Shown in pieces: positions 15,258-30,403 of a stretch of DNA of 64,000 bases; the first letter of the stretch is position 1, and every line of letters starts with the position of its first letter. The notes beneath the pieces are model-generated. The model worked only from the letters and a program-made list of their open reading frames with translations, made no database searches and was not told the origin of the DNA. The DNA is from Escherichia coli O127:H6 str. E2348/69 (GTDB lineage Bacteria; Pseudomonadota; Gammaproteobacteria; Enterobacterales; Enterobacteriaceae). The position numbers and the translations under genes are program-made. The stretch lies in assembly GCF_000026545.1 (NCBI RefSeq), contig NC_011601.1. The stretch is one strand, 5' to 3'.

Positions 15258-15342
15258 GCCGAAGTGGCGAAATCGGTAGACGCAGTTGATTCAAAATCAA
15301 CCGTAGAAATACGTGCCGGTTCGAGTCCGGCCTTCGGCACCA
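15258..15342 (+). tRNA. leuX: tRNA-Leu (anticodon CAA)
   Basis: 85-nt sequence gccgaagtggcgaaatcggtagacgcagttgattCAAaatcaaccgtagaaatacgtgccggttcgagtccggccttcggcacca; long variable arm, CCA end encoded. Confidence 0.92.
15312..15342 (+). repeat. attL core: 31-bp 3' end of leuX, repeated exactly at 30373-30403
   Basis: cgtgccggttcgagtccggccttcggcacca occurs at both positions in direct orientation. Confidence 0.85.
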
Positions 15343-15859
15343 AGTCACTAAATTTCTTACAATACAATAAGTTAGGAAATAAAATCTATCTCTTTTGCCT
15401 GTAAGAAATGCTCTGTTATGTCCCTTGAAAAAGCCGCTGTGGTTGATAGTGGTAATTGGGATGTTAACTCATAGCGGCGTGTAGTTCCAAGCGTCAAACA
15501 CGTACTGACTCAACTTGAAAGCTATGACGTAGCCACCGTCTCTAAACAATCCCAAAAACTTTTAGTGAAGCGCATTTTAGCCCGATGCCCCCGTTCTGTC
15601 GCCGTCGCGAGACGCCGCAGGGGATAAACAGGTTTATGGTGGTCACGGTACTTGCAGACCATATGCAAGCTCTGCCAGCGGTTCGGCCTCGCTCCCCTTG
15701 GGTACATGGTCATCCTGATAAGCCTCACTAACTGACATAACTGTGATGTAGTCGCCAGAGGCTCCGCTTGTTGTCTTACCACCAACGGGGCTTATGACTT
15801 TTATTGTGTCAGTAAACGGCATATTATCAGTGATAGTTCAAACAGTTAGTAGGTAGAAA

Positions 15860-16408
15860 ATGAAGACCAAAAGAAAGAGCTTTGATCAATTCTTATGGCA
15901 TGATATTGATTTTGAAGATGATGCTGCAAAACAGGAAGAATACCTTGAATCTGCATTGCCACTTATTGGCCAGATTGTTATGTATTTCAATGCGCTAGAG
16001 AAAGAATTAGATAAAGTCATTTATGAAGGATTCAGCGATCGGTCAGATCAGTTAGGAATAATAATTGTGCATAACATGAATTATGCAGCAAAAGTCGAGT
16101 TATTTAGACGTCACTCCGAATTATTCCATTTGGGTGTTGGGCAGCATGTTGATATGTTTGAAGGTCTTATAAAGGATCTCAAGGAATGTGGACGGTTACG
16201 AAACATTACTGTACATGCTGACTGGGATAGCACTGATGTCGAAGGATATACATATTTAGGCATCAAAATAACTAACAATGGAATATCTCAGGAATATATC
16301 CAGTTTGACCTGGGGTCGTTGGAAAGTATCCTTCAATTGATTTTCAGTACGAGATATAAGTTGAGTGATTATTCAGACTTAAGGGGAGATATACTGGCTT
16401 CACATTAG
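15860..16408 (+). CDS. Hypothetical protein with HEPN-like R-N-x3-H motif (possible RNase/abortive-infection-type toxin)
   Basis: 182-aa ORF in AT-rich DNA; RLRNITVH motif at about residues 112-119 fits the HEPN Rx4-6H signature. Motif-level evidence only. Confidence 0.4.
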   Translation: MKTKRKSFDQFLWHDIDFEDDAAKQEEYLESALPLIGQIVMYFNALEKELDKVIYEGFSDRSDQLGIIIVHNMNYAAKVELFRRHSELFHLGVGQHVDMFEGLIKDLKECGRLRNITVHADWDSTDVEGYTYLGIKITNNGISQEYIQFDLGSLESILQLIFSTRYKLSDYSDLRGDILASH

Positions 16409-16477
16409 TGCCATTTTTTTACTAAATAGCTAACAAATACTATCGGTAAAAGACAACATCGCAATGGTAAAGCTGCC

Positions 16478-16948
16478 GTGAAGAAGACATTGATTGATTG
16501 GATCATAGAGACTGATAACTGGACAGGAATCGCAGCGTGGGCGGGTTTCGGTTTGTCAGTATTTCAGTTAGTAAAATCAAGAACATCGCTAAGACTTTAC
16601 CTCGGGTGTGATCAGCACGAGGACAGAATATACGTTTCGAACATAAGCGCACATGATGTAACGTTGAGTGTAGCCGGTGTCGTAACAGCCAGTGGACGCC
16701 TTAGAATGCTTTCCGACGAGTATTCGGATGAGAACATGATCACACCGATGTTACCAAGAAGGTTGAAAGCACGAGACGAAATGGTCTTGAACGTGCCCTT
16801 CATAAATAAGGCTCATCACAACAAAGTGCATCATCGTGGCGGGGTGTATATCAAAACATCTGACGGCAAGATGTTCAGTGATGTTTGTTGGATTAGACGC
16901 CAATGGTGGTGGTTACTGTCTGTAATACTGCGAGACACAAAGCGATAG
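16478..16948 (+). CDS. Hypothetical small membrane protein
   Basis: 156-aa ORF with an N-terminal hydrophobic helix (GIAAWAGFGLSVFQLV) and a Trp-rich hydrophobic C-terminus; AT-rich. Confidence 0.4.
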   Translation: MKKTLIDWIIETDNWTGIAAWAGFGLSVFQLVKSRTSLRLYLGCDQHEDRIYVSNISAHDVTLSVAGVVTASGRLRMLSDEYSDENMITPMLPRRLKARDEMVLNVPFINKAHHNKVHHRGGVYIKTSDGKMFSDVCWIRRQWWWLLSVILRDTKR

Positions 16949-17159
16949 GACAAGCGAGTCGCAGCTCATATGAGTGCCAACTGACATACGGCTCAGTTGG
17001 AATACTAGGATCGCGACTACGTGTTGTCTGCGAAAAACTGGGACTCAATAGATGGGTGTAGATTTAATTGATACGATCCTGTACGCGAATATTTCTCAGC
17101 ATAAATATCATCCCAGCGTCGGATTATGGTATTCAGAATGTGTGTGATGGTCTCTATCT

Positions 17160-17921
17160 TTATTCAGACCTTTTCTTCTTATCTTCCCATTCTTTTAAAG
17201 TGCTCTGATATCTTTCTTCATTTATTCTTTTTTCCTCGGTTCTGTCGCTTGAGTTGTAATTATCTGTTTTAATTTTCTTGGCTCCTTGGGATATCGGCCT
17301 CCAGTCCTCTCTAATTTTTTTCACTTGCTCGGCTATTTGTGTCATTGGACTCCTTGCTCCTAAATAGCTAACCCCCTCGAAAGAAGCCATATCATAAGAA
17401 TATTCATTGAGTTCTCTTTCTGTAGATCCGGGCTGTTTTGACCAACTGACACTAATAGAATAAATTTGATCCTTAATTTGCTCATACTTGCAGAGATTGC
17501 TGTTGAGAGAGTGTCCGTTTTTTAATACGCTGACCTTGCTAAATGGTACGCCTCTATTTTTTCTATGTTCTGCATTAACGAGAGGGGGATCAAATTCGAC
17601 CGCTATATCATAGGCTGGTGCATTTCCAGTATTAGCGATATTAATGTCAAAATAAAAAGCAGCCCAAGAGTTTGGTTCAAGAGTCACAACAACATGTGGT
17701 TGAACTGATGCGTCAACCATCCTTTTCGTTTCGTTTGCTAATAGCCTTGTTACTCTCCACAAGAAAAACGTAGCAACTGCTGTTAGCAGTGCTGCAAAAG
17801 CAGAGATCATTGTGCTTATAGTATCTATATGCTGTGTGATGAATTCGATCATTCTTCTCCCTCGAAATATAGTGCTTATTGTTATCAAAGGTAAGATAGC
17901 TCCCGGCTTGAAAAATTGCAC
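17160..17921 (-). CDS. Hypothetical membrane-anchored protein (probable true start at internal Met near 17852)
   Basis: 253-aa ORF; N-terminal TM helix (ISAFAALLTAVATFFLW) then a soluble domain and a charged K/E-rich C-terminus. Confidence 0.4.
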   Translation of the reverse strand: MQFFKPGAILPLITISTIFRGRRMIEFITQHIDTISTMISAFAALLTAVATFFLWRVTRLLANETKRMVDASVQPHVVVTLEPNSWAAFYFDINIANTGNAPAYDIAVEFDPPLVNAEHRKNRGVPFSKVSVLKNGHSLNSNLCKYEQIKDQIYSISVSWSKQPGSTERELNEYSYDMASFEGVSYLGARSPMTQIAEQVKKIREDWRPISQGAKKIKTDNYNSSDRTEEKRINEERYQSTLKEWEDKKKRSE

Positions 17922-18314
17922 GCTTATGGTTGCCCCTCCCTCGACGGTTAAGGCTTCAACTTCCCCCGTGCGCCTCTCCCAGCCGAAGGCTGGGCGGGCT
18001 GTATATCGATTTGCCTTCCTCTGTGGCGTTTATGACCCTGTTTCGCGTTCTTACCGTGAGGCTGTGGGTTAGGGTTACTCTTCTCTTTAAACGCTAAATC
18101 ACTCCTGAATCTCCACTGTTAAAGCACTTTGCGTTGATGCTTGGCGCTTCTCTTGGCTGTCGTTATTGTTTTGGCTTTGGTGTCATCAATCGTTCGATTC
18201 TTGCTACCTGTCTGAGTGATTACTATCTGGTATCATCAATTTAGGGTTTGACTAAATGCCACCACCAATGCAATGATGCTACCGTTTTGTGATACCAGAC
18301 GGGTGAGGTGAACC

Positions 18315-18884
18315 ATGAGGACTTTTATCTACTGCCGCGTTTCAACACGCGAGCAGGATACGCAGAATCAGGTGCTGGCTATTGAGCGTGCCGGGTATAA
18401 GGTGCCGGAGAGCAGGGTAATCAGCGAGGACATTTCCGGCAGCGTTCAGGCTATGCAGCGCCCTAAGTTCCGGGCGATGGTTGAGCACAAGCTGGAAGCG
18501 GGAGATCAGCTTGTCGTGCTGAAACTGGACAGGCTGGGGCGTGACAACATCGATGTGCAGCAGACCATCGACATGCTGTTAGAACGCGGCGTGAAGGTGG
18601 TGTCTCTTGACCTGCCAGCGCGTGATCTGACTTCATCTGAGGGCAAGCTAATCCGCCAGATGTTTGGAGCCTTTGCTGAGTTCGAGCGAAACCGTATCCG
18701 TGAGAGGACGCTGGACGGGCTGGAGAAGGCGAAAGCCAATGGCGTTAAGCTGGGACGCAAGGAAGCCACCGACACCACTCAAAAGGTGCAGGAGCTGCGG
18801 AGTGAGGGGCTGTCTCAATCGAAGGTAGCGAAGCATCTCGGCGTTAGCGTGAGCACCGTTAAACGTCACTGGAACAAGGGTTAG
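18315..18884 (+). CDS. Serine recombinase (resolvase/invertase family)
   Basis: 189 aa; catalytic-serine motif YCRVSTREQ at the N-terminus, LDRLGR motif, C-terminal HTH (SQSKVAKHLGVSVSTVKR). Confidence 0.85.
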   Translation: MRTFIYCRVSTREQDTQNQVLAIERAGYKVPESRVISEDISGSVQAMQRPKFRAMVEHKLEAGDQLVVLKLDRLGRDNIDVQQTIDMLLERGVKVVSLDLPARDLTSSEGKLIRQMFGAFAEFERNRIRERTLDGLEKAKANGVKLGRKEATDTTQKVQELRSEGLSQSKVAKHLGVSVSTVKRHWNKG

Positions 18885-19559
18885 GGGTGATGACCTACAA
18901 CCAAATGAGGTGCCAGCACTGGCCGTTACTGGGCTGTGGGAGATGGATGACCTACAGCTTTTGTATTTATTTCAGAGTGTTATGTTATGCGAAATCTCGT
19001 AATGCTATGATTTATAGTGTATTTTCGTATTACTTGCGGCTCTTGATGCGAAGAGATGGCGGGGCTTTAGCCGTGCCAGACGATGAGCATCAAGATCAGA
19101 TTGTGAATGTGATTCATCACTGAACAATTCGAGGGATGGGGCAGGGGAAGGGATCAAAGGCTGCGTTGTCCAATCACTAAGCTAGATTTGAAGCTGGTCA
19201 ACACGTTAGTAGTATCTTTAAAGTCGCATTTTAAATACATGTACAAAAAAGGGTTCTTCCCCTACATCCCCTTCTCCTAATCAGTGTTATCGCTTCACGC
19301 TCACCACTGGCTGCGCTTCTCGCTGTGCTCCAGCCCACTCGATCGCCTTTGGCTCATTCCCGGTCTTCGCCTGCTGTGATGCTCGGCCACTCTACGCAAC
19401 CGTGCTTGCCGTGGCATGCAACGCGGCGGGGATGTGTAGTGGAACGGTACTTTTTATCTATATTATTAATTTAATCAATCACATACTGTTATCGGTAGGT
19501 ATTCTTCAAAACATCTTCATTCATTTCTGTATCGTTCAATCATCTTTCTTGTTCGTTTC

Positions 19560-19700
19560 CTTTCAGGTCTTAGCCGTTGGTCATTGGTCTTACTGCCCGC
19601 TGTGCTACTGCCAGCTATGGCACGCCGTCACGGTCTACTGTCTGTCACCTGTCCTACTGCGTTCACTGTCTGCCGTCTGTCATCCTGTCGGATTCCATCC
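19560..19700. repeat. Pyrimidine-rich cluster of short iteron-like repeats (YTACTGYC / CTGTC) next to an AT-rich tract; candidate replication origin
   Basis: tcttactgcc, gctactgcc, tctactgtc, cctactgcg and cactgtctgcc within about 100 bp; AT-rich stretch at 19440-19560 immediately upstream. Confidence 0.3.
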
Positions 19701-20149
19701 GTTGACGTTCCGCGCTCGCTTGTTTCGGCTGCGCCGCGCTCGCTCTGCGTATCTAGCGATACTATATCACTATAGACACTTTCATAATTATATAATGATT
19801 ACAGTAACTTATGTTTTCTGTTTTAAAAGCTACTAATAAGGAGATATAGAGCATTACTTACCCGCTTTTGACCGACAAAAATCGCGTTGTTAAGTATTGC
19901 CAGCCCAGGCTCAATAAGGCTTAGCGAGGTGGTGGCTAAAAAATGAGCTAATGAAGGTATCTACTAAGGAGAAAGAATAACTCCCGAAGCGCGACAAACT
20001 CTCCGATTTTGAAAGTGACTATTAAGGCAGATAAAGACACTGACACTGTTGCTGACATGAAAACTTCTAAAAGGGCAGAGAGTCTGCCGAACCCGTACCG
20101 CTGACCCAACCTGAGCTAATACCTACCCCTATTTTCTGGAGATTTCACC

Positions 20150-21994
20150 ATGCCAACAAACCTACGCCGCCTGCTTGCGCAGGCTGCCGACGCTGACCCG
20201 CTCAATACTGCGGACGCAGATGTACAGCAAATGATCGCTGACGGGATTGTTATTCGACGTTCCAAGATATGCCCTGTAAAGCGTAAACCCGTTAAGGCGG
20301 CATACAACACAAAGACCGAAGAGTTTTATTACAATGCAGATGGCTCCGCGATGACCTTGCGGGAGTGGCGAACGCTGCACGGTGTTCAACCGAAGAAACA
20401 AAAACAGCGCTCTGACACTGGGTTGCGGCAAGTCATCCAGCCCGGCGACGCGATTCACTGCCGACGCGCTGAGATTGAGCAATGGCTTAATAAGAAGCCC
20501 GCTCGTTATGTTGACCCGCTGCCGCCAGATTTTCCCGGTGTTCGCGTAGACGATGCCGCATTGAAACCGCGCGAGCACGCCGTGCCGGAAGCGACAACCG
20601 GACAGAATGCTTTTCTCAAAGCCTGCCGCGAGTTCCTGATTTGCGATGAGAAGACCATGCGCCGTATCAGTCGGGGCATGAACCAAATGGAAGCTATGCG
20701 CAACGCAGATTTCAAACGCTACGGAGACTCAGGGGAGTTTCGTCAATTGTGGTGTGGAGAGTCGAAGCCTACCGAAGATAGATTTAATAGTTCTAATCAT
20801 CATTGTGACCCGAACGGCTTGGCTGCTTCGCCGTCTGTGCCGCCACTGAATACTGCACCGTATGAGTTCCGCCCGCTGGCTCGCTGTGACCGAAACGCAC
20901 GCGTTAGCCTGCTGCCACCTGATGGGCTGGAGTGGAGGCCGGGGCAGTTGTCTGTTGCTGATGCGATCTTTTCCCGTGGCAGTGATGTGCTTGCCGTACT
21001 GCCGACCGGGTATGGCAAAAGCGCCGCCTTCACTTATCCATTGATTTATGAGTCCCGCGCTGGCATTGGCCTGTCTGTAATCGTGGTTCCTACTAATACC
21101 CTTAAGCGTCAGATTCTCCGCCAGTTGCGGGAGGCTGGCATTCACGCTGTGGCCTTTGGCGATAAGCTACCGAGGCACCGCAACGCACAACAACTGGCGG
21201 GACTAGCAGCCGGGGCGTTCCGGGTTGCTGTTGTTTCGCCTGAACATCTGGTTCCGTCGAGTCAGGTTCTCGCGGCGCTGATGGCTTATGGCGTTGATCG
21301 TTTTATTATCGATGAGGCACACACGGTCAAAGACTGGGATTTCCGCCCAGCTTACGACGCAATGCAGCACACACTACAGAATGCTTTTCCCTCGGCTCAG
21401 CGCTGCGTGTTTACGGCTACTCTACTACGAGAAAATGAGCGCGGTTTAATGGAGGCGCTGGGATGCCGTGGCGATTACGTTACATTCCGTGCTGATGTTG
21501 CTCGCGAGAATATCCAGTTGATTCCGGTCAGGCAGTGCCGCCAGCGATACCGCGCGGCTGTTGGTCTGGTCGAGGCTCTGCCAGAGGAAGAGAAGACGCT
21601 CATTCTAGTCAATGACCTTAAGACGTTGCGGGCGTACCTGAAACTCTTCGGCGACCGGGCGCGCCCATATCACTCGAAGACGATGCACCTGAGCAACGAG
21701 GAACGCCACGCAAACGCTGAGTGGTTTGCCTCTGCGCCGGGCGCGATTCTGATTGCTACTAAAGCCTTCGGGCTGGGTGCTGATGTTCCTGATATCCGTA
21801 ACGTTGTCGTGACATACGTTCCCGATGACTTGCCTGATCTCGTTCAGATGATTGGACGAGCCGGGCGCGATGGGGAACCTGCCCGCGCTTTTCTGCTGTG
21901 GTCATCGCTGGCGCTGGATGTTGCTCCTGATGAGCTTGCTTACTTCTACCGCCCTGAAAACTGTAACTGGCAGTACATCGCTAAATACCTCTGA
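20150..21994 (+). CDS. RecQ-family superfamily-2 DNA helicase with a ~270-aa N-terminal domain of unknown function
   Basis: Helicase motifs LPTGYGKS (Walker A), IIDEAHTV (DEAH box) and GRAGRDG (RecQ-type motif VI). Confidence 0.7.
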   Translation: MPTNLRRLLAQAADADPLNTADADVQQMIADGIVIRRSKICPVKRKPVKAAYNTKTEEFYYNADGSAMTLREWRTLHGVQPKKQKQRSDTGLRQVIQPGDAIHCRRAEIEQWLNKKPARYVDPLPPDFPGVRVDDAALKPREHAVPEATTGQNAFLKACREFLICDEKTMRRISRGMNQMEAMRNADFKRYGDSGEFRQLWCGESKPTEDRFNSSNHHCDPNGLAASPSVPPLNTAPYEFRPLARCDRNARVSLLPPDGLEWRPGQLSVADAIFSRGSDVLAVLPTGYGKSAAFTYPLIYESRAGIGLSVIVVPTNTLKRQILRQLREAGIHAVAFGDKLPRHRNAQQLAGLAAGAFRVAVVSPEHLVPSSQVLAALMAYGVDRFIIDEAHTVKDWDFRPAYDAMQHTLQNAFPSAQRCVFTATLLRENERGLMEALGCRGDYVTFRADVARENIQLIPVRQCRQRYRAAVGLVEALPEEEKTLILVNDLKTLRAYLKLFGDRARPYHSKTMHLSNEERHANAEWFASAPGAILIATKAFGLGADVPDIRNVVVTYVPDDLPDLVQMIGRAGRDGEPARAFLLWSSLALDVAPDELAYFYRPENCNWQYIAKYL

Positions 21995-22031
21995 GTCGAA
22001 AGGCTCTCCCTGATTCTCTGGAGTTAATCAT

Positions 22032-22469
22032 ATGCCTGTTACCGAACATGCGCAGCGTCGTGCTGCGCGTGCGGATGCGCTCATCACCGCACAACTAGCC
22101 TTTGCCCTGAATGGGTACAACTGGGATGAACTGGCCGAACCTCATCGCAAGACCCTTAATCGTGAGGCCATCATTCGCGAGGTATCTACACCGCTGGAGC
22201 GATATTGCCTGCTGAATGATTGCGAGCCGTGGGAGTGTCTGGCCGCTGTACTGAACCGCATGAAAAGGCCGGATGGCTCGCGTCGCTGGAAAGCCGTCCG
22301 GTTGTCCGACCGGGTTTTCAATGGCCGGGTGCATCCAGTGCGCAAGACTCCTGATGAAGTTTACGCCGCCATTGCCCGCCGCTTGTTCCTGCCGAAGCCT
22401 GTGCATCAAGAAGTGATACAGCACATCCGTGCGCTTGGCTTGTTACCAGTTGGAGATAACCACCAATGA
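22032..22469 (+). CDS. Hypothetical protein
   Basis: 145-aa ORF, co-directional in a tightly packed operon. Confidence 0.4.
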   Translation: MPVTEHAQRRAARADALITAQLAFALNGYNWDELAEPHRKTLNREAIIREVSTPLERYCLLNDCEPWECLAAVLNRMKRPDGSRRWKAVRLSDRVFNGRVHPVRKTPDEVYAAIARRLFLPKPVHQEVIQHIRALGLLPVGDNHQ

Positions 22470-22675
22470 CGAAATCTGAATTTGAAAATGAAACATGGCG
22501 AATGAAGGGCTTGCTTCTTGGGGCGCTGATTCGCCGCCTTGAGGAAGATAAGGCTGGCGAGTCGCGCATGGTCGCAGCGGAGTTATCCAGTGCGGTCAAC
22601 TTCCTTAAGGCCAACGCCGTAGAAGCGCCGGACACATCATTCAACAACGTGTTCCCGGAGGATGACGAACAATGA
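22466..22675 (+). CDS. Hypothetical small protein
   Basis: 69-aa ORF with ATGA overlap with the upstream gene. Confidence 0.3.
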   Translation: MTKSEFENETWRMKGLLLGALIRRLEEDKAGESRMVAAELSSAVNFLKANAVEAPDTSFNNVFPEDDEQ

Positions 22676-22848
22676 CCCCTGAACAATTCAGACAATGGTT
22701 CGCCACGCTGCCACCGAACTATCAGAGCGCCGCACGCACCATGTACGACAACGCCCGCAAGTCGGGCATACATACCGCGTCAAGCCTTGCGCTGATTCAC
22801 ACGTTGGTTACTGACCAGATCAAATTTGATTCGGAGTTTAATTTATGA
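22672..22848 (+). CDS. Hypothetical small protein (58 aa)
   Basis: Not in the ORF track (below 60 aa); start and stop both overlap neighbours in ATGA fashion, suggesting translational coupling. Confidence 0.3.
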   Translation: MTPEQFRQWFATLPPNYQSAARTMYDNARKSGIHTASSLALIHTLVTDQIKFDSEFNL

Positions 22849-23408
22849 CTTTGAGTATTACCGATATCCAGCGCATTAACGCGCTGGCTCATAAGCACCT
22901 AAAGAACAATGAAGAGATTGCAGCGGAGACAGGTCATACCCTGACCGATATTGACGCTGTAATCCGTGGCGTCTATGTCGATGACTTGGCCGAACATTGG
23001 AAAGACGATGCTGATATTACTCTGGCGGAGTACAACGCCATCCGCAGCCGCTATAAGCCCGGCAAGTTGCACCGCGATACAGAGTTTATGATTGCCCGCG
23101 ATATGCTGATTCGCCCTGAGACTGTGCTGGCTATCGCCCATTCCCGCTTTAGCAACGTCCACACGCACCCAGTGCCGAAAGCCGTCAAAGCAAAGCCGGA
23201 GAAAGCGAAAGTAGTGCGCAAGTTAGTGCTTACTGATTTAGATGAAATCCACAAGTTAGAGCGCTTCGGTTGGCCTGCTGCGGAGATCGCCGGGAAGCTG
23301 GGCGTCCCTGTTGAGGTCGTCGCGCATGTGCAACGCTGCCTGAGAAATCGTTGGTCGTACCCGGATACTCTGGAGTCTGTTAACTCCAAATTCAGCGAGG
23401 CTGAATGA
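22845..23408 (+). CDS. Hypothetical protein with a possible C-terminal HTH
   Basis: 187-aa ORF; HTH-like segment GWPAAEIAGKLGVPVEVVAHVQRC. Confidence 0.4.
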   Translation: MTLSITDIQRINALAHKHLKNNEEIAAETGHTLTDIDAVIRGVYVDDLAEHWKDDADITLAEYNAIRSRYKPGKLHRDTEFMIARDMLIRPETVLAIAHSRFSNVHTHPVPKAVKAKPEKAKVVRKLVLTDLDEIHKLERFGWPAAEIAGKLGVPVEVVAHVQRCLRNRWSYPDTLESVNSKFSEAE

Positions 23409-23641
23409 TGGCAGAGAACGAACCGCTGCACCCCGCCGTTAACCCTGATCTCTACGTGAACCTTGACGAACAACGCGAAGGATACGCTCCGATTGAATCA
23501 CAGGGTTGGGATGTGCTGACGCAGAACCTGACCGGGAAAGGTCGAACTGACCCCAGCCAAACACTTAACCAGAATCCGAAACAACGCCCGCACGGCTCCG
23601 TTGGTGAGCGTCGTTGGCTTCGTAAACGTGGATTACTTTAA
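23405..23641 (+). CDS. Hypothetical small protein
   Basis: 78-aa ORF, overlapping start with the upstream gene. Confidence 0.3.
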   Translation: MMAENEPLHPAVNPDLYVNLDEQREGYAPIESQGWDVLTQNLTGKGRTDPSQTLNQNPKQRPHGSVGERRWLRKRGLL

Positions 23642-23653
23642 CGAGGAATTACC

Positions 23654-23893
23654 ATGAGCAAAACTATCGTATTGCTGCCGCCCCGCAAGAATACAGACTG
23701 GGCTGCACAATTAAAGCTGATTTCTGAATCGCTTGAGGTGAGTCAGGCAGACCTCGCCCACGCCTATCAGGTTGATCGTCGGGATATGGGTAAAGCGTAT
23801 CACGGTGTGCGCAAACTGCCGGAGCGTTGTGTGCCTGTTCATATGCTGTTGTTAGCGCAGGTACACGACTTTAGAGCATTATCAGGAGAATAA
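23654..23893 (+). CDS. Hypothetical small protein (possible HTH regulator)
   Basis: 79-aa ORF with an RBS-like aggaa upstream. Confidence 0.35.
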   Translation: MSKTIVLLPPRKNTDWAAQLKLISESLEVSQADLAHAYQVDRRDMGKAYHGVRKLPERCVPVHMLLLAQVHDFRALSGE

Positions 23894-23896
23894 TTT

Positions 23897-24577
23897 ATGT
23901 CTGACCAGAATGTTAATCCGTACCTTTCCGGTGCTGATGCTGCATCGCAGCAATCGCCATACATGGCTGCACCTGTTGGCGCTGACAATGGCGCATCCCG
24001 CTTTAGCTCTGTGCCTGCTGATGCTGATTTCCTCCGTACCCAGCCCGTTAACGGTAATGATGGCGGCCAATGGAATAATGGCAGTATCGCGAATCAGCAG
24101 GATCAGAACGCTGACAGCGCCGGGGCGCAGGTGGGCGATACTATCTCCCTGATGGATGGAACAGCTATTGAGTACACCGCCGAGCTGCAAGGATTGATGG
24201 GGCAGTTTCACCAGTCTGTCGAAAGCCAGCTAGGGCAGGGGACAGTTGACGCTATGTTGCAGTACGCTGGCACGCTCGACGCCGGGACGCAATCGACCCT
24301 TGAACGGATGGTTATGTCTGGCGACCCTGCGCAGATGCAGCGGGCGGTTCAGTATCTGCAAGAGCGTATGGCTGGCGGTTCCATTACCGGTTACGTCCCG
24401 AACGGCCAGACTGCCGCGCAACCTGTCGGAATGTCACATGCTGAGTTTATAGCAGCGTATGACCAGCTTTCGCAGTGGGCGCAGCAATCAGGGTATGGCC
24501 CCGGCCATCGCCAGTACGACGAACAATACCGTGCTCTGGTTGCGCAGCGCTCCGCTGGCAAACGTGCTGGTCGCTAA
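23897..24577 (+). CDS. Hypothetical acidic Q/A/G-rich protein (scaffolding-protein-like composition)
   Basis: 226-aa low-complexity protein immediately upstream of the capsid-like gene; compositional resemblance only. Confidence 0.35.
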   Translation: MSDQNVNPYLSGADAASQQSPYMAAPVGADNGASRFSSVPADADFLRTQPVNGNDGGQWNNGSIANQQDQNADSAGAQVGDTISLMDGTAIEYTAELQGLMGQFHQSVESQLGQGTVDAMLQYAGTLDAGTQSTLERMVMSGDPAQMQRAVQYLQERMAGGSITGYVPNGQTAAQPVGMSHAEFIAAYDQLSQWAQQSGYGPGHRQYDEQYRALVAQRSAGKRAGR

Positions 24578-24716
24578 CGCCCAACGGTGGAATGCGCCCT
24601 GCAAGACTGAGTGCGCACCAACCCGGTACTACCACACCAATCTAAGCGCATGAGTCCCCGCAAGCCGCATTCTGCGCGGCATCTGAAAGCCTGTTTTTAA
24701 TTAACCGAGGTTCGTA

Positions 24717-25130
24717 ATGAGTACCTGTAATTTCCATGCCGTGGTGCGTGTCGCTGACGTGCGCCCGGATTTCGCCTTGCCGCTGGGTAGATGCGACCAC
24801 ATTTACCCTGAGCGTGTGCAGCACGTTTTCAATCCAGACGAAGCGGTTTATATCGTTGCCCGGTCTGCCACATCCGGCACCCGCACATCTGGCGTTAGCC
24901 GTGGGCTTTCCCCTGTGCTGCCGCCGAAGATGGCCGAGCGGATGCGCGAACGTGAACGGCACGAGAAAAACCGAGTCAGACCCCGCAAGGTGATCACTGA
25001 GGCGATACGCGCTGACATTATCGATCGCTCTGCAAAAGGTCAGAAGAATCGTTACATTGCAAGCAAGGTTGGTGTGTCTGAAACCTCTGTGCGGAAGGTG
25101 TTGAACATGGCGCGTATGAGTGCGCACTAG
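24717..25130 (+). CDS. Hypothetical DNA-binding protein (C-terminal HTH)
   Basis: 137-aa ORF; HTH-like NRYIASKVGVSETSVRKVLN. Confidence 0.4.
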   Translation: MSTCNFHAVVRVADVRPDFALPLGRCDHIYPERVQHVFNPDEAVYIVARSATSGTRTSGVSRGLSPVLPPKMAERMRERERHEKNRVRPRKVITEAIRADIIDRSAKGQKNRYIASKVGVSETSVRKVLNMARMSAH

Positions 25131-25349
25131 TGCAAGGTAATACGTTCACCTTACTTCACGCGCACTAACCCCTGAGAACCGTGCCAGCTCTGGCCTCAAA
25201 ACGCCCATTTCGGGGCACCTCATTCCTCTTAATCGATACCGTTCTGAATCCTGCCTCGGCGGGAGGATTACGCACGCCCGCGCCATGACGATGGCCGGGC
25301 CTATCTCGTCAGTGAATCCGCTGGCACAACCTACGTAGGAGTTTTACAT

Positions 25350-26345
25350 ATGGCCGATAACATTTACTCGCCTGACCAGTTCCGCCCACATTATGGCGGG
25401 GTGGAATCTGACAATGATATTCACATCGAGGCTTATGACCGGGATGTCCAGACCCGTTTAGAGTCCAAATCCGTATTTCTGGCCGAGGGGCTGTCTACAT
25501 ACAGGCCGCTGAAAGCCAGCAACCAATATCGTGTTGATCGCCTGAGTGGTGATCTGGAGGTGAAGGGCAGAACCGCAGGGCAATCGCTGGAGCCTACCGC
25601 TGTTAAGTCGGATAAGCTGATTATCTCTGTGGATACGCTGAGTTATATCCGCATCCCGATTGACTATCAGGATGACTGGACAGCACCCACCTTTCGCTCA
25701 GAGCTGAGCCGCAATATCGGTACTGCTCACGCTAAATTCTACGACGAAGCGCACACCATCCAGCTAATCAAAGCGACTGACTTTGTACCGCCGCCGACGT
25801 TGCAACCAACGTTTAACCCGCTGACGGATAATGTTGTCTCGCTCGACCTGACAGCGGGGAGCGAAGAGGACGCCGCAAACGAATTGTCTCACGCCGTAAA
25901 AGCGGCTGCTAATCGCTTTCTCACTGAGAAAGATATTCCGGTGGCCGAGCTGGTACTGCTTATCGACCCGGCTTGGTTCAGCATCCTGATGGAACATAAG
26001 AAGCTGATGAACATCCGTTACAGCCGGGATAGTGGCAACGATTACGCATGGCGTCGAGTTGGCTATGTCGCTTGGGTACGAGTCATTGAGCTGAACAGTT
26101 ACCCGCAGGGAGCCATTACCGCGCATGAACTGGGCGCTGATTATAATGTGACCGCAGGGGAAGCGCTGACACGGGCGACGCTGTTCCGGCCTGCGTCTGT
26201 ACTTGTGACAGTCGAAGCGCAGAGCGTCATCAATCGCCAGTGGGATGAGGAACGCGAAATGACAATGGTGATGGACTCATATCGCCTGTTCAATGTTGGG
26301 CTGCGCCGCCCGGACTGCGTTATCAATTTCCGACAAGCTGCATAA
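25350..26345 (+). CDS. Hypothetical protein, possibly a phage-type structural (capsid-like) protein
   Basis: 331-aa ORF with strong RBS (aggag); size and position after a scaffold-like gene suggest a structural role; no motif-level proof. Confidence 0.35.
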   Translation: MADNIYSPDQFRPHYGGVESDNDIHIEAYDRDVQTRLESKSVFLAEGLSTYRPLKASNQYRVDRLSGDLEVKGRTAGQSLEPTAVKSDKLIISVDTLSYIRIPIDYQDDWTAPTFRSELSRNIGTAHAKFYDEAHTIQLIKATDFVPPPTLQPTFNPLTDNVVSLDLTAGSEEDAANELSHAVKAAANRFLTEKDIPVAELVLLIDPAWFSILMEHKKLMNIRYSRDSGNDYAWRRVGYVAWVRVIELNSYPQGAITAHELGADYNVTAGEALTRATLFRPASVLVTVEAQSVINRQWDEEREMTMVMDSYRLFNVGLRRPDCVINFRQAA

Positions 26346-26361
26346 CTGGAGGGGCTGAGTC

Positions 26362-26871
26362 ATGGTTAATGATGCTTACGCCCCTGAGCTGTTGCGATCC
26401 CTTTTCCTGTATGACCCGGTGACAGGTCGCCTGCACCATAAAGCTAGCCGATGCCGGGTTACGGCTGGCTCCTATGCTGACTCCACCCGGCGAGCTGATG
26501 GCTATCGTCAAGTTGCCCTGCGACTGGATGGCAAGCAGTACCAGCTAAAAGCCCATCGCGTAGCGTGGATTCTTGCGCATGGTGCTATTCCCCACGGTAT
26601 GCAGATCGATCACATCAACGGTACCCGTGACGATAACCGCTTATGCAATCTGCGATTGGTTACGCAGCGGGAAAACGACCAGAACCGACGCAAGGCAAGG
26701 GGGTATAGCTGGAATAAGGGCTGTAGCAAATGGGAGGCTTACATACGCGTTGGTGGTGTACTCCGTCACCTTGGCTTATTCACATCCGAAGCGGCAGCTC
26801 GTGCTGTGTACCTGAAAGCTAAAGCCAGATACCACCCCTCAACGCCTGACGATTTATTGCAGGCTGCCTAA
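26362..26871 (+). CDS. HNH endonuclease (phage-type, with AP2-like region)
   Basis: 169-aa ORF; HNH core IDHINGTRDDNRLCNLRLVTQRENDQN. Confidence 0.7.
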   Translation: MVNDAYAPELLRSLFLYDPVTGRLHHKASRCRVTAGSYADSTRRADGYRQVALRLDGKQYQLKAHRVAWILAHGAIPHGMQIDHINGTRDDNRLCNLRLVTQRENDQNRRKARGYSWNKGCSKWEAYIRVGGVLRHLGLFTSEAAARAVYLKAKARYHPSTPDDLLQAA

Positions 26872-26889
26872 CCCTCGGAGGTTCCATTA

Positions 26890-27315
26890 ATGGCTGATGA
26901 AAAGCCGATTAGGTCGCTGGCAGGTGATGACCCACGCCGCCAGCAGTACGCCGAACTGTTGGCGCAGGCTAGCCGCATGACTATTCCCCGGCTGCATCCG
27001 GGCGATGCTAACAGTGTGATGAGTCAGCTTGCAACGATGCTTGGCGCACCTGTCCCGATAGTCGGTGCTATGACTGAGCACGCCGCTGCATGGCGTGCCT
27101 GTCTGCTTGAGCAAGGACTTGGCGAGCTTCTGGATGGCTTGAGTAAACAGGTGCTGACCATCTTCTTTCTGCTCTGCTGGAGAGACAGCGCCTTGCGATT
27201 GGCTGGTAAGCAAAAGAAACGGCTTACAGCCGCCAGCGAGGGTTTGACCATTGAGCAATACCGGGCAATGCACCCGGCTTACAGAGAGGATAAAGAACAT
27301 GATAACCACGATTAA
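26890..27315 (+). CDS. Hypothetical protein
   Basis: 141-aa ORF in the operon. Confidence 0.35.
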   Translation: MADEKPIRSLAGDDPRRQQYAELLAQASRMTIPRLHPGDANSVMSQLATMLGAPVPIVGAMTEHAAAWRACLLEQGLGELLDGLSKQVLTIFFLLCWRDSALRLAGKQKKRLTAASEGLTIEQYRAMHPAYREDKEHDNHD

Positions 27316-27598
27316 ATTAAGGTGGCGGTACATCGAGACGCCGCCAATGACTGGCGCACTCGCTGACCTGAAACAGTGGGTAATGAATGCCGTAGAGCCT
27401 GAGCTTGAGGCTGAATTTCGTAAGCTGCTGGGGCAGATGCGTCGCAATGGTATCAGTGATGGGCGCGTAAATGCGGTGGCTGATGAGCTTTATGCTCTGG
27501 TATGCCAACGCCAGCGCGAAGAATACGAAGCCTGCAAGCGGGCTGCCTCTGACAATGGAGACTTTGAATCATGGTTACACGGACAGACCAGCTACTAA
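27299..27598 (+). CDS. Hypothetical small protein (start chosen at the ATG with GAGAGGA RBS)
   Basis: Track ORF 27251..27598; internal ATG at 27299 has a good Shine-Dalgarno sequence. Confidence 0.35.
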   Translation: MITTIKLRWRYIETPPMTGALADLKQWVMNAVEPELEAEFRKLLGQMRRNGISDGRVNAVADELYALVCQRQREEYEACKRAASDNGDFESWLHGQTSY

Positions 27599-27996
27599 GA
27601 AAAGCTATGAGGGGCTATCTGGAACACCTTGGCAACATGCCGCTGGCGGAACGGATTACAAATGCTGCTGTATTCGAAGATGTGTATCGCTTTTTGTTGA
27701 ATGGTTCCGGGCGGCTGGAGCTGCGCCGCGCTGACGTGGCTGCCGTCCGTGTCTTCCTTTGGAACTATCAATACCGCCGCTGTGCTGTGACAGGTAAGCC
27801 GCTGCGCCTTGCGTCTGCCGTTCTGGATCACTGCCACCGAACCGGGCGCGTGCGTGCTGTGGTGCATCGTTCTGCTAACGCTGCTGAGGGAGGCCGCTAC
27901 GTTGGGCGGACGTGTGGTGTTAGCGTTACGAATCTAAGGGCTATGATTGGCAGCTATCGCAAGCAATACACTGGTATTGGCATGTTATATCCATAA
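27571..27996 (+). CDS. Endonuclease VII-like (DHCH-type) nuclease
   Basis: 141-aa ORF with CAVTGKPL...LDHCHRTGRVR motif resembling the recombination endonuclease VII family signature. Confidence 0.5.
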   Translation: MVTRTDQLLRKAMRGYLEHLGNMPLAERITNAAVFEDVYRFLLNGSGRLELRRADVAAVRVFLWNYQYRRCAVTGKPLRLASAVLDHCHRTGRVRAVVHRSANAAEGGRYVGRTCGVSVTNLRAMIGSYRKQYTGIGMLYP

Positions 27997-28037
27997 CTGC
28001 GGGGTAATAAACCCCGCCGAAATAGTAGCGTAGCCAC

Positions 28038-28940
28038 TCAAACAGGAATGTTGTAGTAATGACAAATTGCATTAGTTAGTAGAGCTGGTGCAGCAGACGC
28101 TGCAATATTTAGCGTCCCCGCATATGCTTTACCAATCATATTTACAACCCACTTCCCAAGGCTATCACTGAAATTGTCCGGGGTAGTTGGGGCGGGTGAT
28201 TCTTGTATAGCTTGATGAAGGCTCTTAATATCTTCATCATTAGCGCCCCAATCCTTGAGCTGCTTTTCAAGCGAGTTGAAGTCTCCAGCGTTGACAGTAT
28301 TATTTTGTGAAATGTCCCCGTTACCAGAGCCAATAACGCCAGCATTGTTTACGTTGCCATGAATGTTGGTCACGTTATGGACAGTCATTGGCGCTACCTC
28401 TTTTTCTCTTAATGAAAACTGTAACCCTTCGCCTAAAATACCCTTTGACTCTAAGTCTAAAGACCAGTCGAGGATCTTATTCCTAACGGTAGTAATTACA
28501 TGTTCTAGTACACCAGCGCTTATAACCCATACCATCTCAGTCTTTTGTCCGATACTTTGAGCTAATGTATCAGCCATCCAATCCGGGAGAGGTAAAAAAG
28601 GGTTTTCTCCTTTATTGCTCATCTTTTTTATAGATGATATTGATTCTGTAATGTGAAACGTTGATACCATTGCATTTAATTCCGCGTCGTTGAAGTTGAC
28701 CACAAGCGGAACCCAGCTCTGATGTTGGGGACTATATGCTTTTAACTGCGATTGACCTTTCCTGTATTCAGGAACCGTATCAAAGCTGGGATAGCCATTT
28801 AATTCGAGCTGTATCCACTCGGTCAAATCGCTGAGGCCGAGCTTCACTGCAATCATTTTGGCCTTCATGAGTACAGATAAAATGTCGGAGTCGGGATCGC
28901 ACGCTAGTGCTTGAAGTTCAAGAACTGGTGAGTTAGCCAT
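28038..28940 (-). CDS. Hypothetical protein adjacent to the integrase (candidate abortive-infection/defense cargo)
   Basis: 300-aa ORF on the integrase strand, convergent with the main operon; N-terminal region loosely resembles Abi-type proteins, from memory only. Confidence 0.4.
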   Translation of the reverse strand: MANSPVLELQALACDPDSDILSVLMKAKMIAVKLGLSDLTEWIQLELNGYPSFDTVPEYRKGQSQLKAYSPQHQSWVPLVVNFNDAELNAMVSTFHITESISSIKKMSNKGENPFLPLPDWMADTLAQSIGQKTEMVWVISAGVLEHVITTVRNKILDWSLDLESKGILGEGLQFSLREKEVAPMTVHNVTNIHGNVNNAGVIGSGNGDISQNNTVNAGDFNSLEKQLKDWGANDEDIKSLHQAIQESPAPTTPDNFSDSLGKWVVNMIGKAYAGTLNIAASAAPALLTNAICHYYNIPV

Positions 28941-29027
28941 ATCAAGACCTTAGTATTGTTTTGATAAGGTATCTTACCCGCATCGAACCATGCAGTCTAA
29001 GGTTCGCAGGCCAAACTCACCCATGAG

Positions 29028-30239
29028 TTAGATGTTTATTCCTTCATGCTGGATGAGTTCGACATACTTACCGATCTCTATAGGGGAAGCTGCATTTTTC
29101 GAGTAAGTTTTGAAGCTCTCTGTACTCCCGCGCTCATGACCGACGAGCAGGGCAATACGATCTTCTGGCACTTGAGCACGGTCGAGCTGTTGCACAAAAG
29201 CATGGCGGAGTGAGTGAAACACTTTTCTCTCTGCGGCAGGCTCGCCAAGAGCTTTACGCTTTGCTCGCGTGAATTGCTGCGTATGCCACGTTGAGCGCTT
29301 CCCATCGGCCCGGTCTGTTATTGATGCGTGATAGAACAGAAAACCGCTATGTGTGGTCTTGAGCAATGACTTCACGAGAGGGATTATCTTGCTGTGTACA
29401 GGGACGATTCGCGCCGCGCTCTTAGTCTTCCCCTCGGTGATCTCAAAGCACAATATACCCTCGATAGTTTTAATACTGCTTTCACGTAGCGTACATATCT
29501 CATTGATCCGCATACCGCTGTATGCACCAATAGCCGTTACCGCCTTCATCTCGTCATCAAGCAAGGCATAGACCTTTGCCAGCTCTCCCGGTGCGAAGAC
29601 TTCATAGCTGACCTTGCTGCTTTTTGCTTCGAGCGCATGACCGCGCCAAGGATTGTCCTGTGGTGCATCGTGATAGCGATTGCGTGCCAGATCCCATATC
29701 TGCGCCAGTGCGCTTATATAGTTTTGGATAGTTTGGGGCGCTCGCTCAGTTTTGAGCTTATCTAACCAGCCTGTAACTATGGTTCGGTTAATATCCCGCA
29801 ACTGAACATCTTTCTTTTTCAAGTGGGTTAACAGCACCTCTACGGCTTTGTTGGTCTTGGATAACGTGGTTAGCTTTCGCTTCTCGCTGTATTGAAGCAG
29901 GTACAAATCACGCATTTTTAGCAAGGAAGGGCAAGCCTGAATCGATGCACCAAACGATGCGGGGGCTTCCTTGGCGTACACACTGACACGGCGTAGCTCA
30001 TCAATGATTTGGTCTACAGATGAGCCGCCTTGTGGCTTTAGCAGATTCCGTAAGCGAGTCCATTCCAGAGCAATAGCATCTCGAAACAATCGCGCTTGGC
30101 GTATGTCTCGTGTTCCTGTGCTTTTCATAAAGTAGCGCTTCCCTTGGAACAGGTGGCGCATATAGCTGGGAATAGCTATCCGCACGAGGTAATTCCCGCA
30201 GGGATCTAAAACTAGATAACGATCTCTCTTGAAACTCAT
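29028..30239 (-). CDS. Tyrosine-type site-specific integrase
   Basis: 403-aa ORF with C-terminal catalytic motifs (HSLRHAF, LLVGHERG, downstream Tyr); adjacent to the attR repeat. Confidence 0.9.
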   Translation of the reverse strand: MSFKRDRYLVLDPCGNYLVRIAIPSYMRHLFQGKRYFMKSTGTRDIRQARLFRDAIALEWTRLRNLLKPQGGSSVDQIIDELRRVSVYAKEAPASFGASIQACPSLLKMRDLYLLQYSEKRKLTTLSKTNKAVEVLLTHLKKKDVQLRDINRTIVTGWLDKLKTERAPQTIQNYISALAQIWDLARNRYHDAPQDNPWRGHALEAKSSKVSYEVFAPGELAKVYALLDDEMKAVTAIGAYSGMRINEICTLRESSIKTIEGILCFEITEGKTKSAARIVPVHSKIIPLVKSLLKTTHSGFLFYHASITDRADGKRSTWHTQQFTRAKRKALGEPAAERKVFHSLRHAFVQQLDRAQVPEDRIALLVGHERGSTESFKTYSKNAASPIEIGKYVELIQHEGINI

Positions 30240-30372
30240 ACAAACCCCGGTTATGTTGTCGGGGCTTTTTCATGGCTAAACAGTCTGTGAAATGTGCCGG
30301 GGTCATGAGCTTTAGTCTAGCTAGTTCAACAAGTTAACGATGATTGTTGAAGCAAGCTAAGTCGCTATAACC

Positions 30373-30403
30373 CGTGCCGGTTCGAGTCCGGCCTTCGGCA
30401 CCA
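30373..30403 (+). repeat. attR core: 31-bp direct repeat of the leuX 3' end
   Basis: Exact copy of 15312-15342. Confidence 0.85.

Follow-up and report, generated by a model that had tools for sequence, protein, structure and literature searches.

The question raised by this locus was what role a cluster of short, pyrimidine-rich repeats could play in a bacterial chromosome, where it lies beside an AT-rich tract and between a recombinase gene and a helicase gene. The locus belongs to a stretch of 64,000 nucleotides (the window; all positions given without another source are counted from its first letter), which was identified by a 100% match as DNA of Escherichia coli O127:H6 strain E2348/69. 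A first-pass annotation of the window had taken the cluster for a candidate replication origin of the iteron type. Based on the analysis reported here, it was concluded that the cluster is probably the transcribed part of a cis-acting module (approximately 19465-20096), which a satellite island copied from and exchanged with the left end of Bonnellvirus genomes, and that it likely serves as a T7-type start of helper-driven replication. The probability of this reading was put at roughly 55%. The element thus looks like a mimic of a helper genome end and not like an iteron origin, and the island that carries it looks like a previously undescribed phage satellite.

Composition of the repeat cluster

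The cluster was located in a non-coding gap of 1,265 bp between the recombinase and helicase genes, in agreement with the setting proposed earlier. The AT-rich tract (19450-19560) forms the left part of the variable module, is island-specific and has no phage counterpart; its GC content was 26% at 19450-19549. In the cluster region, the plus strand was 65% pyrimidine with an AT skew of -0.27 to -0.68. Both the strongly AT-rich tract and the strand-biased C/T-rich stretch described by the first-pass annotation were therefore real.

The short motifs were all confined to positions 19588-19690 and were specific to the plus strand. Three exact copies of YTACTGYC were found at 19590, 19605 and 19635, when 0.04 were expected and none of 1000 dinucleotide shuffles reached three. 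The earlier count of at least four copies held for these three; the fourth was only a near copy, CTACTGCG, at 19654. The multiple CTGTC motifs were confirmed as six copies on the plus strand (19638, 19642, 19649, 19666, 19677 and 19685) and none on the minus strand. The expectation for CTGTC was 0.8-1.0, and the observed count was attained in 0 of 1000 dinucleotide-preserving shuffles. Similarly, CTG occurred 13 times on the plus strand versus 2 on the minus strand. A motif count no higher than in shuffled sequence had been named as an outcome that would speak against an origin; the excess over shuffled sequence stood.

The arrangement of the motifs did not resemble an iteron array. The gaps were irregular, being 15, 30 and 19 bp for YTACTGYC and 4, 7, 17, 11 and 8 bp for CTGTC, and Tandem Repeats Finder reported no tandem array in the cluster region. 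The motifs were 5-8 bp long and scattered, and the best repeat family consisted of three copies of 23 nt at 70-78% identity with spacings of 49 and 28. An AT-rich element was present next to the motifs at 19450-19549, but a set of at least three direct iterons of approximately 17-22 bp at regular spacing was absent. No Rfam match at E≤1 was obtained in 18700-20300. Predicted structure was not convincing for either the leftward transcript (z of -1.8) or the plus strand (z of +1.15).

Homology to the left end of Bonnellvirus genomes

In a search of phage genomes, the stretch from 19608 or 19650 to 19813 matched 15 Bonnellvirus phages (Autographiviridae) and no others, at 85-98.8% identity. They belong to the T7-like podophages, encode an RNA polymerase of their own and infect E. 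coli, Enterobacter, Cronobacter, Kosakonia and Pantoea. The shared block of 164 bp (19650-19813, plus strand) matched the left-end region of the phages, which extends from the terminal repeat to the early sigma70 promoters. Its identity to the closest left ends was 97-99%, with phage HHU8 at 98.8%. The right edge was sharp, and the homology always ended at ...AACTTAT (19813). The phage counterpart is non-coding. It follows the endolysin gene, the last of the late genes, and precedes four strong sigma70 early promoters and the first early gene, that of SAMase. The homology falls in the non-coding interval that separates the late from the early genes, as for a genome end of the T7 group.

Phage J8-65 was the only one with annotated physical ends, a direct terminal repeat of 259 bp located 73 bp past the endolysin stop codon. 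The block mapped approximately 130-310 bp to the right of this repeat, and by the same mapping to J8-65 the block did not contain the terminal repeat itself. For the phages that match the block, whose own ends are unannotated, the position of the terminal repeat was transferred from J8-65. Two other candidates for physical ends were rejected. The end overlaps of 121 bp in the RZ4 and BHUENT7 records are probably assembly overlaps, and the record of phage glasur starts exactly with a 23-bp repeated element, so that a repeat-induced break is more likely than a true end.

The order of elements at the phage junction was derived from an alignment of five phages. From left to right, it comprises the endolysin gene, a conserved element of approximately 45 bp, the terminal repeat, a TATCT(G/A)TCT(C/T)TTTT motif, approximately 250 bp of CTG-rich short repeats, a pyrimidine-rich segment, an inverted copy of the 23-bp element, an AT-rich stretch in which a 20-mer occurs twice, and the early promoters. 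Of these, the pyrimidine-rich segment, the inverted 23-bp element and the AT-rich part with the 20-mer are the ones to which the island block corresponds. The 20-mer TAATGATTACAGTAACTTAT occurs in the phages as two copies approximately 80 bp apart, between the leftward and the early promoters (in megetsur, L001 3146-3165 and 3236-3255). The island carries only the first copy (19793-19812, plus strand), and the island-phage homology ends at its last base.

Further, the short motifs of the cluster were counted at the phage junctions. CTGTC was present nine times in glasur and eight times in Kc261 on the plus strand and never on the minus strand (expected 0.7-0.8), and CTACTG was present three and two times, respectively (expected 0.2). 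CTG occurred 37-40 times on the plus strand versus 2-4 times on the minus strand at the junctions of all four phages tested. Strand-specific short-repeat arrays thus stand beside the terminal repeat in the phages, and the island carries such an array as well. Because the phage junctions carry the same strand-specific motifs, the "iterons" of the first-pass annotation are the island version of the short repeats of the helper genome end.

At the phage junctions the longer form of the T-rich motif, GG(G/C)TATCT(G/A)TCT(C/T)TTTT, was kept approximately 16 bp after the end of the J8-65 repeat (J8-65 approximately 275-290; glasur, L006 42260-42277) and in all Bonnellvirus junctions; the island had no copy near the block. 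It resembles the class II concatemer-junction pause signal of T7, ATCTGTT followed by a T-run.

The homologous stretch also bears on whether the region codes for a protein. An open reading frame (ORF) of 144 aa does run through it (19402-19836), and the records of HHU8, Kc261 and forsur annotate a coding sequence ("hypothetical protein") over the homologous stretch. The ORF has no Pfam match, the frame is broken by indels of 1, 2, 8 and approximately 10 nt between islands and phages, and most phage records leave the stretch unannotated. A coding function is thus highly improbable, and the earlier judgement that the ORFs look non-coding was upheld.

Putative promoters of the phage RNA polymerase

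The 23-bp element TTATGAAAGTGACTATAGTGATA was found in three or four copies per phage. One plus-strand copy precedes the replication genes, another directly follows the polymerase gene ahead of the structural genes, a third (in most phages) precedes a structural gene, and a minus-strand copy is located at the junction. The conserved span is exactly 23 bp, which is the size of a T7-type promoter (-17 to +6). Within the element a triplet was uniform in each phage, with the exception of one TAT site in J8-65, and varied among phages: TGA in glasur and RZ4, CTA in Kc261, TGT in BHUENT7, and TAA in J8-65 and smaasur. In T7, such triplets determine promoter specificity (PMC6171733). Judging by these features, the 23-bp element is the promoter for the phage's own RNA polymerase. 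Since its orientation is set by the three gene-proximal copies, the junction copy would fire leftward.

In the island, a predicted promoter of this type, TTATGAAAGTGTCTATAGTGATA (-17 to +6), runs from 19787 to 19765 on the minus strand, belongs to the TGT class and points leftward into the repeat cluster. It is identical to the junction copy in megetsur, HHU8 and BHUENT7. A promoter for the phage's own RNA polymerase, as required of a T7-type origin, can therefore be recognized by its sequence. Because this promoter stands at the end of the block, the helper polymerase would transcribe the repeats toward the AT-rich tract upon infection. The tract lies approximately 200-300 bp downstream of the promoter; the phages have no AT-rich DNA on that side.

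Additionally, three promoter-like sites of the phage type, all facing the helicase operon, were found on the plus strand. The site at 19821-19843 is of the GCTAC class (the Kc261 type, triplet CTA). The one at 19949-19971 is of the GTATC class (triplet TAT, like one J8-65 site), and the one at 20007-20029 is of the GTGAC class (triplet TGA, as in glasur and RZ4) and is located approximately 120 bp 5' of the helicase ATG. The degenerate pattern WWWTRAARGNNNCTANW had four matches in the window, all within 19771-20023, when 0.18 were expected and none of 100 shuffles reached four; in glasur, only the four promoter sites matched. The pattern was composed after the sites had been seen; what it offers as an independent check is its specificity, in the window as well as in the phage. 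The four island sites have four different triplets, in correspondence with the four classes found among the phages, which may reflect bet-hedging across helpers or may be a trace of past recombination. One related island, L009, had four plus-strand sites that are alike by eye (GTGTC, GTGAC, GCTAC and GTAAC), and only one of them fits the strict pattern.

No sigma70-like promoters were found in 18800-20250, where 2.1 were expected, and the minus strand at 19158-19947 had no ORF of at least 40 aa. A terminator-like hairpin is present on the minus strand at 19263-19249, where the leftward transcript could end.

Exchange of the module between islands and phages

The comparison of sibling islands showed that the whole module at 19465-20096 was replaced between them while the flanks were kept. 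In L009, the helicase N-terminus (residues 1-130) was 97% identical to that of the window and the module was unrelated, whereas in L010 the helicase was 68-74% identical (68% over residues 1-130) and the module was the same. From this contrast it follows that the module was swapped independently of the helicase. The module type with the cluster block was found in 58 genomes.

According to the identity matrix, the block of each island was nearer to a phage than to the sibling islands. The closest pairs were the window and HHU8 (98.8%), L011 and glasur (94.5%), and L097 and a Bonnellvirus sequence from IMG/VR (97.6%). The 115 bp beyond the promoter (19650-19764) were 99.1% identical to HHU8 and BHUENT7 versus 82-96% to sibling islands. 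Further, the L097 island was 97.6% identical to that of the window over 6.6 kb around the block versus 91% within it. Consequently, the whole 164 bp, and not just the 23-bp promoter, was repeatedly replaced by phage sequence. On these comparisons, the repeated replacement would imply co-residence with the phages and selection to match them.

A different module takes the place of 19465-20096 in two islands (L008, 9645-10413; L009, 9565-10425). Its layout is similar, with AT-rich, pyrimidine-rich and again AT-rich DNA containing promoter-like sites. It had no match in the phage collection and none to a J8-65-type junction, and no exact 20-mer was found for it in IMG/VR, which suggests an unsampled helper lineage.

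Packaging-site-like element and gene content of the island

A second piece of the phage junction was found at 17901-17945 on the plus strand. This pac- or cut-site-like element of 45 bp matches the 40 bp upstream of the Bonnellvirus terminal repeat together with the first 5 bp of the repeat (TCGAC). Its identity was 91-93% to most phages compared and 84% to glasur. The physical left end of J8-65 begins TCGACCC..., after ...CCTCCC in the concatemer. The 45-bp element was the most conserved piece of the phage junction and was nearly invariant in four islands. Of 5426 complete E. coli genomes, 244 had it, a number close to that of the genomes with the island backbone. In the island type of the window, similarity past TCGAC was not significant in comparison with shuffles, and no full terminal repeat was recognizable; a by-eye match of 17990-18020 to the right boundary of the repeat was dropped on the same ground. 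By homology, then, the island carries a packaging signal of the helper, and 17901-17945 is likely the best candidate for its packaging or cut site.

The island spans 15343-30403 (15,061 bp) at a tRNA-Leu gene and is bounded by an exact repeat of 31 bp, as is typical of satellite islands of 7-20 kb with an integrase and attachment repeats at a tRNA. The left copy, attL (15312-15342, plus strand), is the last 31 bp of the tRNA-Leu gene, and the second copy of the att core, attR, is located at 30373-30403 (plus strand). A tyrosine integrase is encoded at the attR end (29028-30239, minus strand). A homologue of the major capsid protein is encoded at 25350-26345 on the plus strand (PHROG 267, E 3e-64; solved podophage capsids, E 9e-78). 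Its closest phage relative is the Bonnellvirus capsid, with 55-56% full-length identity. RefSeq labels this ORF "hypothetical protein" in E2348/69 and "capsid protein" in other strains. A 69-aa protein (22466-22675, plus strand) is weakly similar to small terminases (TerS) of the T7 gp18 type: the match to PF11123 had an E of 3e-4, which is below the curated cut-off, and glasur TerS gave 11/20 identities (E 1e-4). No matches to portal, large terminase (TerL), tail or lysis genes were obtained in searches of the island proteins. The set of virion and lysis genes is thus incomplete, consisting of the capsid homologue and the weakly TerS-like peptide. The full head set of a capsid-forming phage-inducible chromosomal island (cf-PICI), namely capsid, portal, protease, head-tail connectors, TerS and TerL, is represented by the capsid only. 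On this gene content and the homologies described above, the island appears to be a satellite of Bonnellvirus phages.

The RecQ-like DEAD/DEAH helicase (20150-21994, plus strand) is the first gene of a plus-strand cluster and has an N-terminus of 260 aa without assignment; genes for an HNH nuclease and for a protein resembling endonuclease VII belong to the same operon. Pfam- and PHROG-type domain searches of the island proteins detected neither a Rep nor a primase domain. The cargo at the integrase end differed between islands: AbiTii at 28038-28940 (minus strand) in E2348/69, and a hypothetical protein with a TIR-domain protein in L008 (18288-19465). Such variable cargo is typical of defence hotspots in satellites.

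The gene to the left of the gap encodes a small serine recombinase of the DNA-invertase/resolvase type (18315-18884, plus strand; Pfam Resolvase E 8e-37 with HTH_7; PHROG 125 DNA invertase E 5e-55). The non-coding stretch directly behind it (18885-19465) was kept in all sibling islands at 82-92%. It holds GATGACCTACA twice (18890 and 18946), an AT-rich patch, and an imperfect inverted repeat (19246-19266 and 19435-19455) that encloses 168 bp. The stretch could be a res site, an inversion site or an origin of the island's own. No inverted variants of it were found among the few islands compared. An invertible segment under the control of the adjacent invertase was rejected, since related islands were colinear and the module was replaced rather than inverted.

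Outside attR, the DNA at 30628-43230 encodes a type I restriction-modification system (HsdR/S/M), McrBC, a phosphorothioate-dependent endonuclease and an HNH endonuclease. This run represents the immigration-control region of E. coli and is not island DNA.

Proposed mechanism and alternative explanations

The reading of the cluster as a copied piece of the helper genome end was drawn from homology and position, the identity and orientation of the promoters, motif enrichment, satellite-like genes, the copy of the cut site and mosaic exchange. We proposed that the island would be silent until the helper polymerase arrives, whereupon the rightward promoters would turn on the operon from the helicase to the capsid gene. 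The leftward promoter and its repeat-bearing leader would have a cis-acting role comparable to that of phiOL and phiOR, the T7 end promoters that precede no gene. The leftward unit would most likely be a T7-type site at which transcription activates helper-driven replication, the AT-rich tract being the DNA that opens easily. After amplification, the island DNA would be cut at the pac-like site and packaged from there, into capsids that contain the island's own capsid protein.

Extended to the whole family of islands at tRNA-Leu (approximately 4.5% of complete E. coli genomes), the proposal has about even odds. The islands would be satellites of virulent Bonnellvirus phages, sensing infection through helper-polymerase promoters of all four classes of the genus, mimicking the genome end (17901-17945 and 19588-19813) for replication and packaging, and supplying their own capsid. 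The leftward, gene-less junction promoter with its CTG-type leader would then be an unrecognized cis element of Bonnellvirus replication or maturation.

Several points weighed against this proposal. Helper dependence, transcription start sites, initiation of replication and packaging are all steps that we infer from the DNA. The layout of a promoter followed by AT-rich DNA is island-specific, and the phages have no counterpart. The position of the terminal repeat was transferred from J8-65, a phage so diverged at its junction that the island block has no match there. The promoter pattern is a post hoc one, though its specificity check is independent. The leftward promoter is of the TGT class and the three rightward sites are of other classes, which is awkward for a single helper. 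The structure score of the leftward transcript was unconvincing, and the generality of the model rests on unsampled helpers, as the L008/L009 module matches no known phage. Additionally, no excised, circular or packaged island contig was found in metagenomes or viromes, where every placeable contig was integrated.

The main rival was an accessory role in packaging or maturation, in which the block and repeats would be part of the helper's junction-processing signal, either pacC-like or a polymerase-pausing array that recruits terminase. In T7, Pac comprises PacB together with PacC (PMC9860248), and the polymerase paused at the concatemer junction recruits terminase, which initiates packaging (PMC3276506). 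The block adjoins the terminal repeat in the phages, a class-II-like motif approximately 16 bp after the end of the J8-65 repeat is kept in all phages, and the 115 bp that the island copies in addition to the 23-bp promoter are 97-99% identical. However, approximately 1.7 kb and a gene separate the island block from the cut site (17941), when the distance in phages is approximately 400-600 bp. Because of this difference, a single composite signal of fixed geometry is unlikely. Moreover, the TATCTGTCTCTTTT motif is missing near the island block, and the pac-like 45-mer is family-wide (244 genomes), whereas the block is found in only 58. An accessory packaging role was hence considered unlikely, though it is the most serious of the alternatives. 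A start of replication was favoured because of the distance of the block from the cut site and because an AT-rich tract had been added downstream of the promoter.

The promoters could also belong to an infection sensor or decoy without transfer of the island, where they would switch on interfering genes (nucleases, a dominant-negative capsid, AbiTii) and the block would be a by-product of gaining the promoter through recombination, or a decoy that titrates phage factors. The promoters do fit the helper classes, the island contains an HNH nuclease, an endonuclease VII-like protein and AbiTii within a variable cargo (TIR in L008), and the lack of a packaged form among metagenome and virome contigs agrees with such a role. 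The integrase, the att sites and the conserved copy of the helper cut site in every family member speak for mobilization instead, and the repeated replacement of the entire 164-bp block argues that the leader itself was selected. This explanation was judged rather improbable. The autonomous iteron-type origin of the first-pass annotation fared still less well. In it, an initiator of the island, either the helicase or the N-terminal domain of that protein, would bind to the repeats while the AT-rich tract melts. It draws on the over-represented direct motifs and AT-rich tract beside the helicase gene, the 260-aa N-terminus of which could bind DNA. The motifs form no regular array, the motif-bearing right half is derived from phage, module and helicase do not co-vary across islands, so that a cognate initiator nearby is wanting, and no Rep or primase domain was detected. 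The claim that the adjacent helicase serves iterons and an unwinding element was therefore not supported, and an origin function, if there is one, would be of the T7 type rather than the Rep/iteron type. The annotation was right to see here a cis-acting control region of a satellite-like element beside a helicase operon.

Comparison with known systems

The origins of satellites of the phage-inducible chromosomal island (PICI) type lie beside a primase or helicase gene. The locus resembles the iteron origins of plasmids and PICIs in having an AT-rich tract next to short direct repeats near a helicase gene. It differs from them by its lack of regular iterons of 17-22 bp, by the phage origin of its repeats, by the absence of co-variation with the helicase and by the absence of a detected Rep or primase.

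A closer likeness was found to the left end of T7-group genomes, with its terminal repeat, SRL/SRR repeats, phiOL and phiOR, and leftward promoter A0. A T7 origin consists of a phage promoter and AT-rich DNA. In the T7 group, short-repeat arrays reportedly adjoin the terminal repeat, and the T7 end promoters that have no gene behind them are said to be tied to replication and packaging. The Bonnellvirus element occupies the same place, between the terminal repeat and the early promoters, and also combines strand-specific short-repeat arrays with a phage-polymerase promoter that has no gene to express. Unlike phiOL and phiOR, which are directed rightward, the promoter here points leftward to the terminal repeat. 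The repeats are of the CTG/CTGTC type, whereas those of T7 are heptamers, and the present copy is situated in a bacterial island, 1.7 kb from the copy of the cut site.

When a plasmid contains a T7 origin along with pac and the terminal repeat, T7 amplifies it, packages it and passes it on by transduction (PMC13236587, citing Chung & Hinkle 1990; PMC9860248). The island resembles such transducing phagemids in having sequence counterparts of the replication signals and of the junction and pac signals. It is unlike them in being natural and integrative, with a capsid protein, helicase and nucleases of its own. Additionally, it carries the cut site that precedes the repeat and no recognizable full terminal repeat.

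Satellites with virulent helpers have been described in PLE and PICMI (PMC10803314). Searches of the full-text literature returned nothing on satellites of Autographiviridae or T7-like phages, and the papers returned for the leuX island of E2348/69 did not describe it. The known E. coli phage satellites, to our knowledge, use temperate or P2-like helpers, and the known capsid-encoding satellites are the cf-PICIs. Like SaPIs, PICIs, P4, PLE, PICMI and cf-PICIs, the present element is an integrase-bearing island within the 7-20 kb range, with a copy of the helper packaging signal and variable defence cargo; it shares a capsid gene with the cf-PICIs and, putatively, a virulent helper with PLE and PICMI. 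Unlike the cf-PICIs, it lacks portal, protease and TerL genes and encodes only the capsid and perhaps a peptide similar to TerS. In contrast to the known satellites, the putative helper is T7-like and packages genomes with direct terminal repeats, and induction would proceed through promoters for the helper RNA polymerase rather than through a derepression protein.

Because a parasite keeps exactly those pieces, the island would reveal the cis elements needed at the Bonnellvirus genome end. The finding is relevant to phage therapy and to host range too: Bonnellvirus hosts include, besides E. coli, Enterobacter, Cronobacter, Kosakonia and Pantoea, and the pac-like element is present in about 1 of every 22 E. 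coli genomes that are complete. If confirmed, the island would be the first satellite of T7-like phages, which are strictly lytic and possess their own RNA polymerase and direct terminal repeats. It would also represent a new induction logic among satellites, based on helper-polymerase promoters that are possibly arranged as a panel for several helper specificities.

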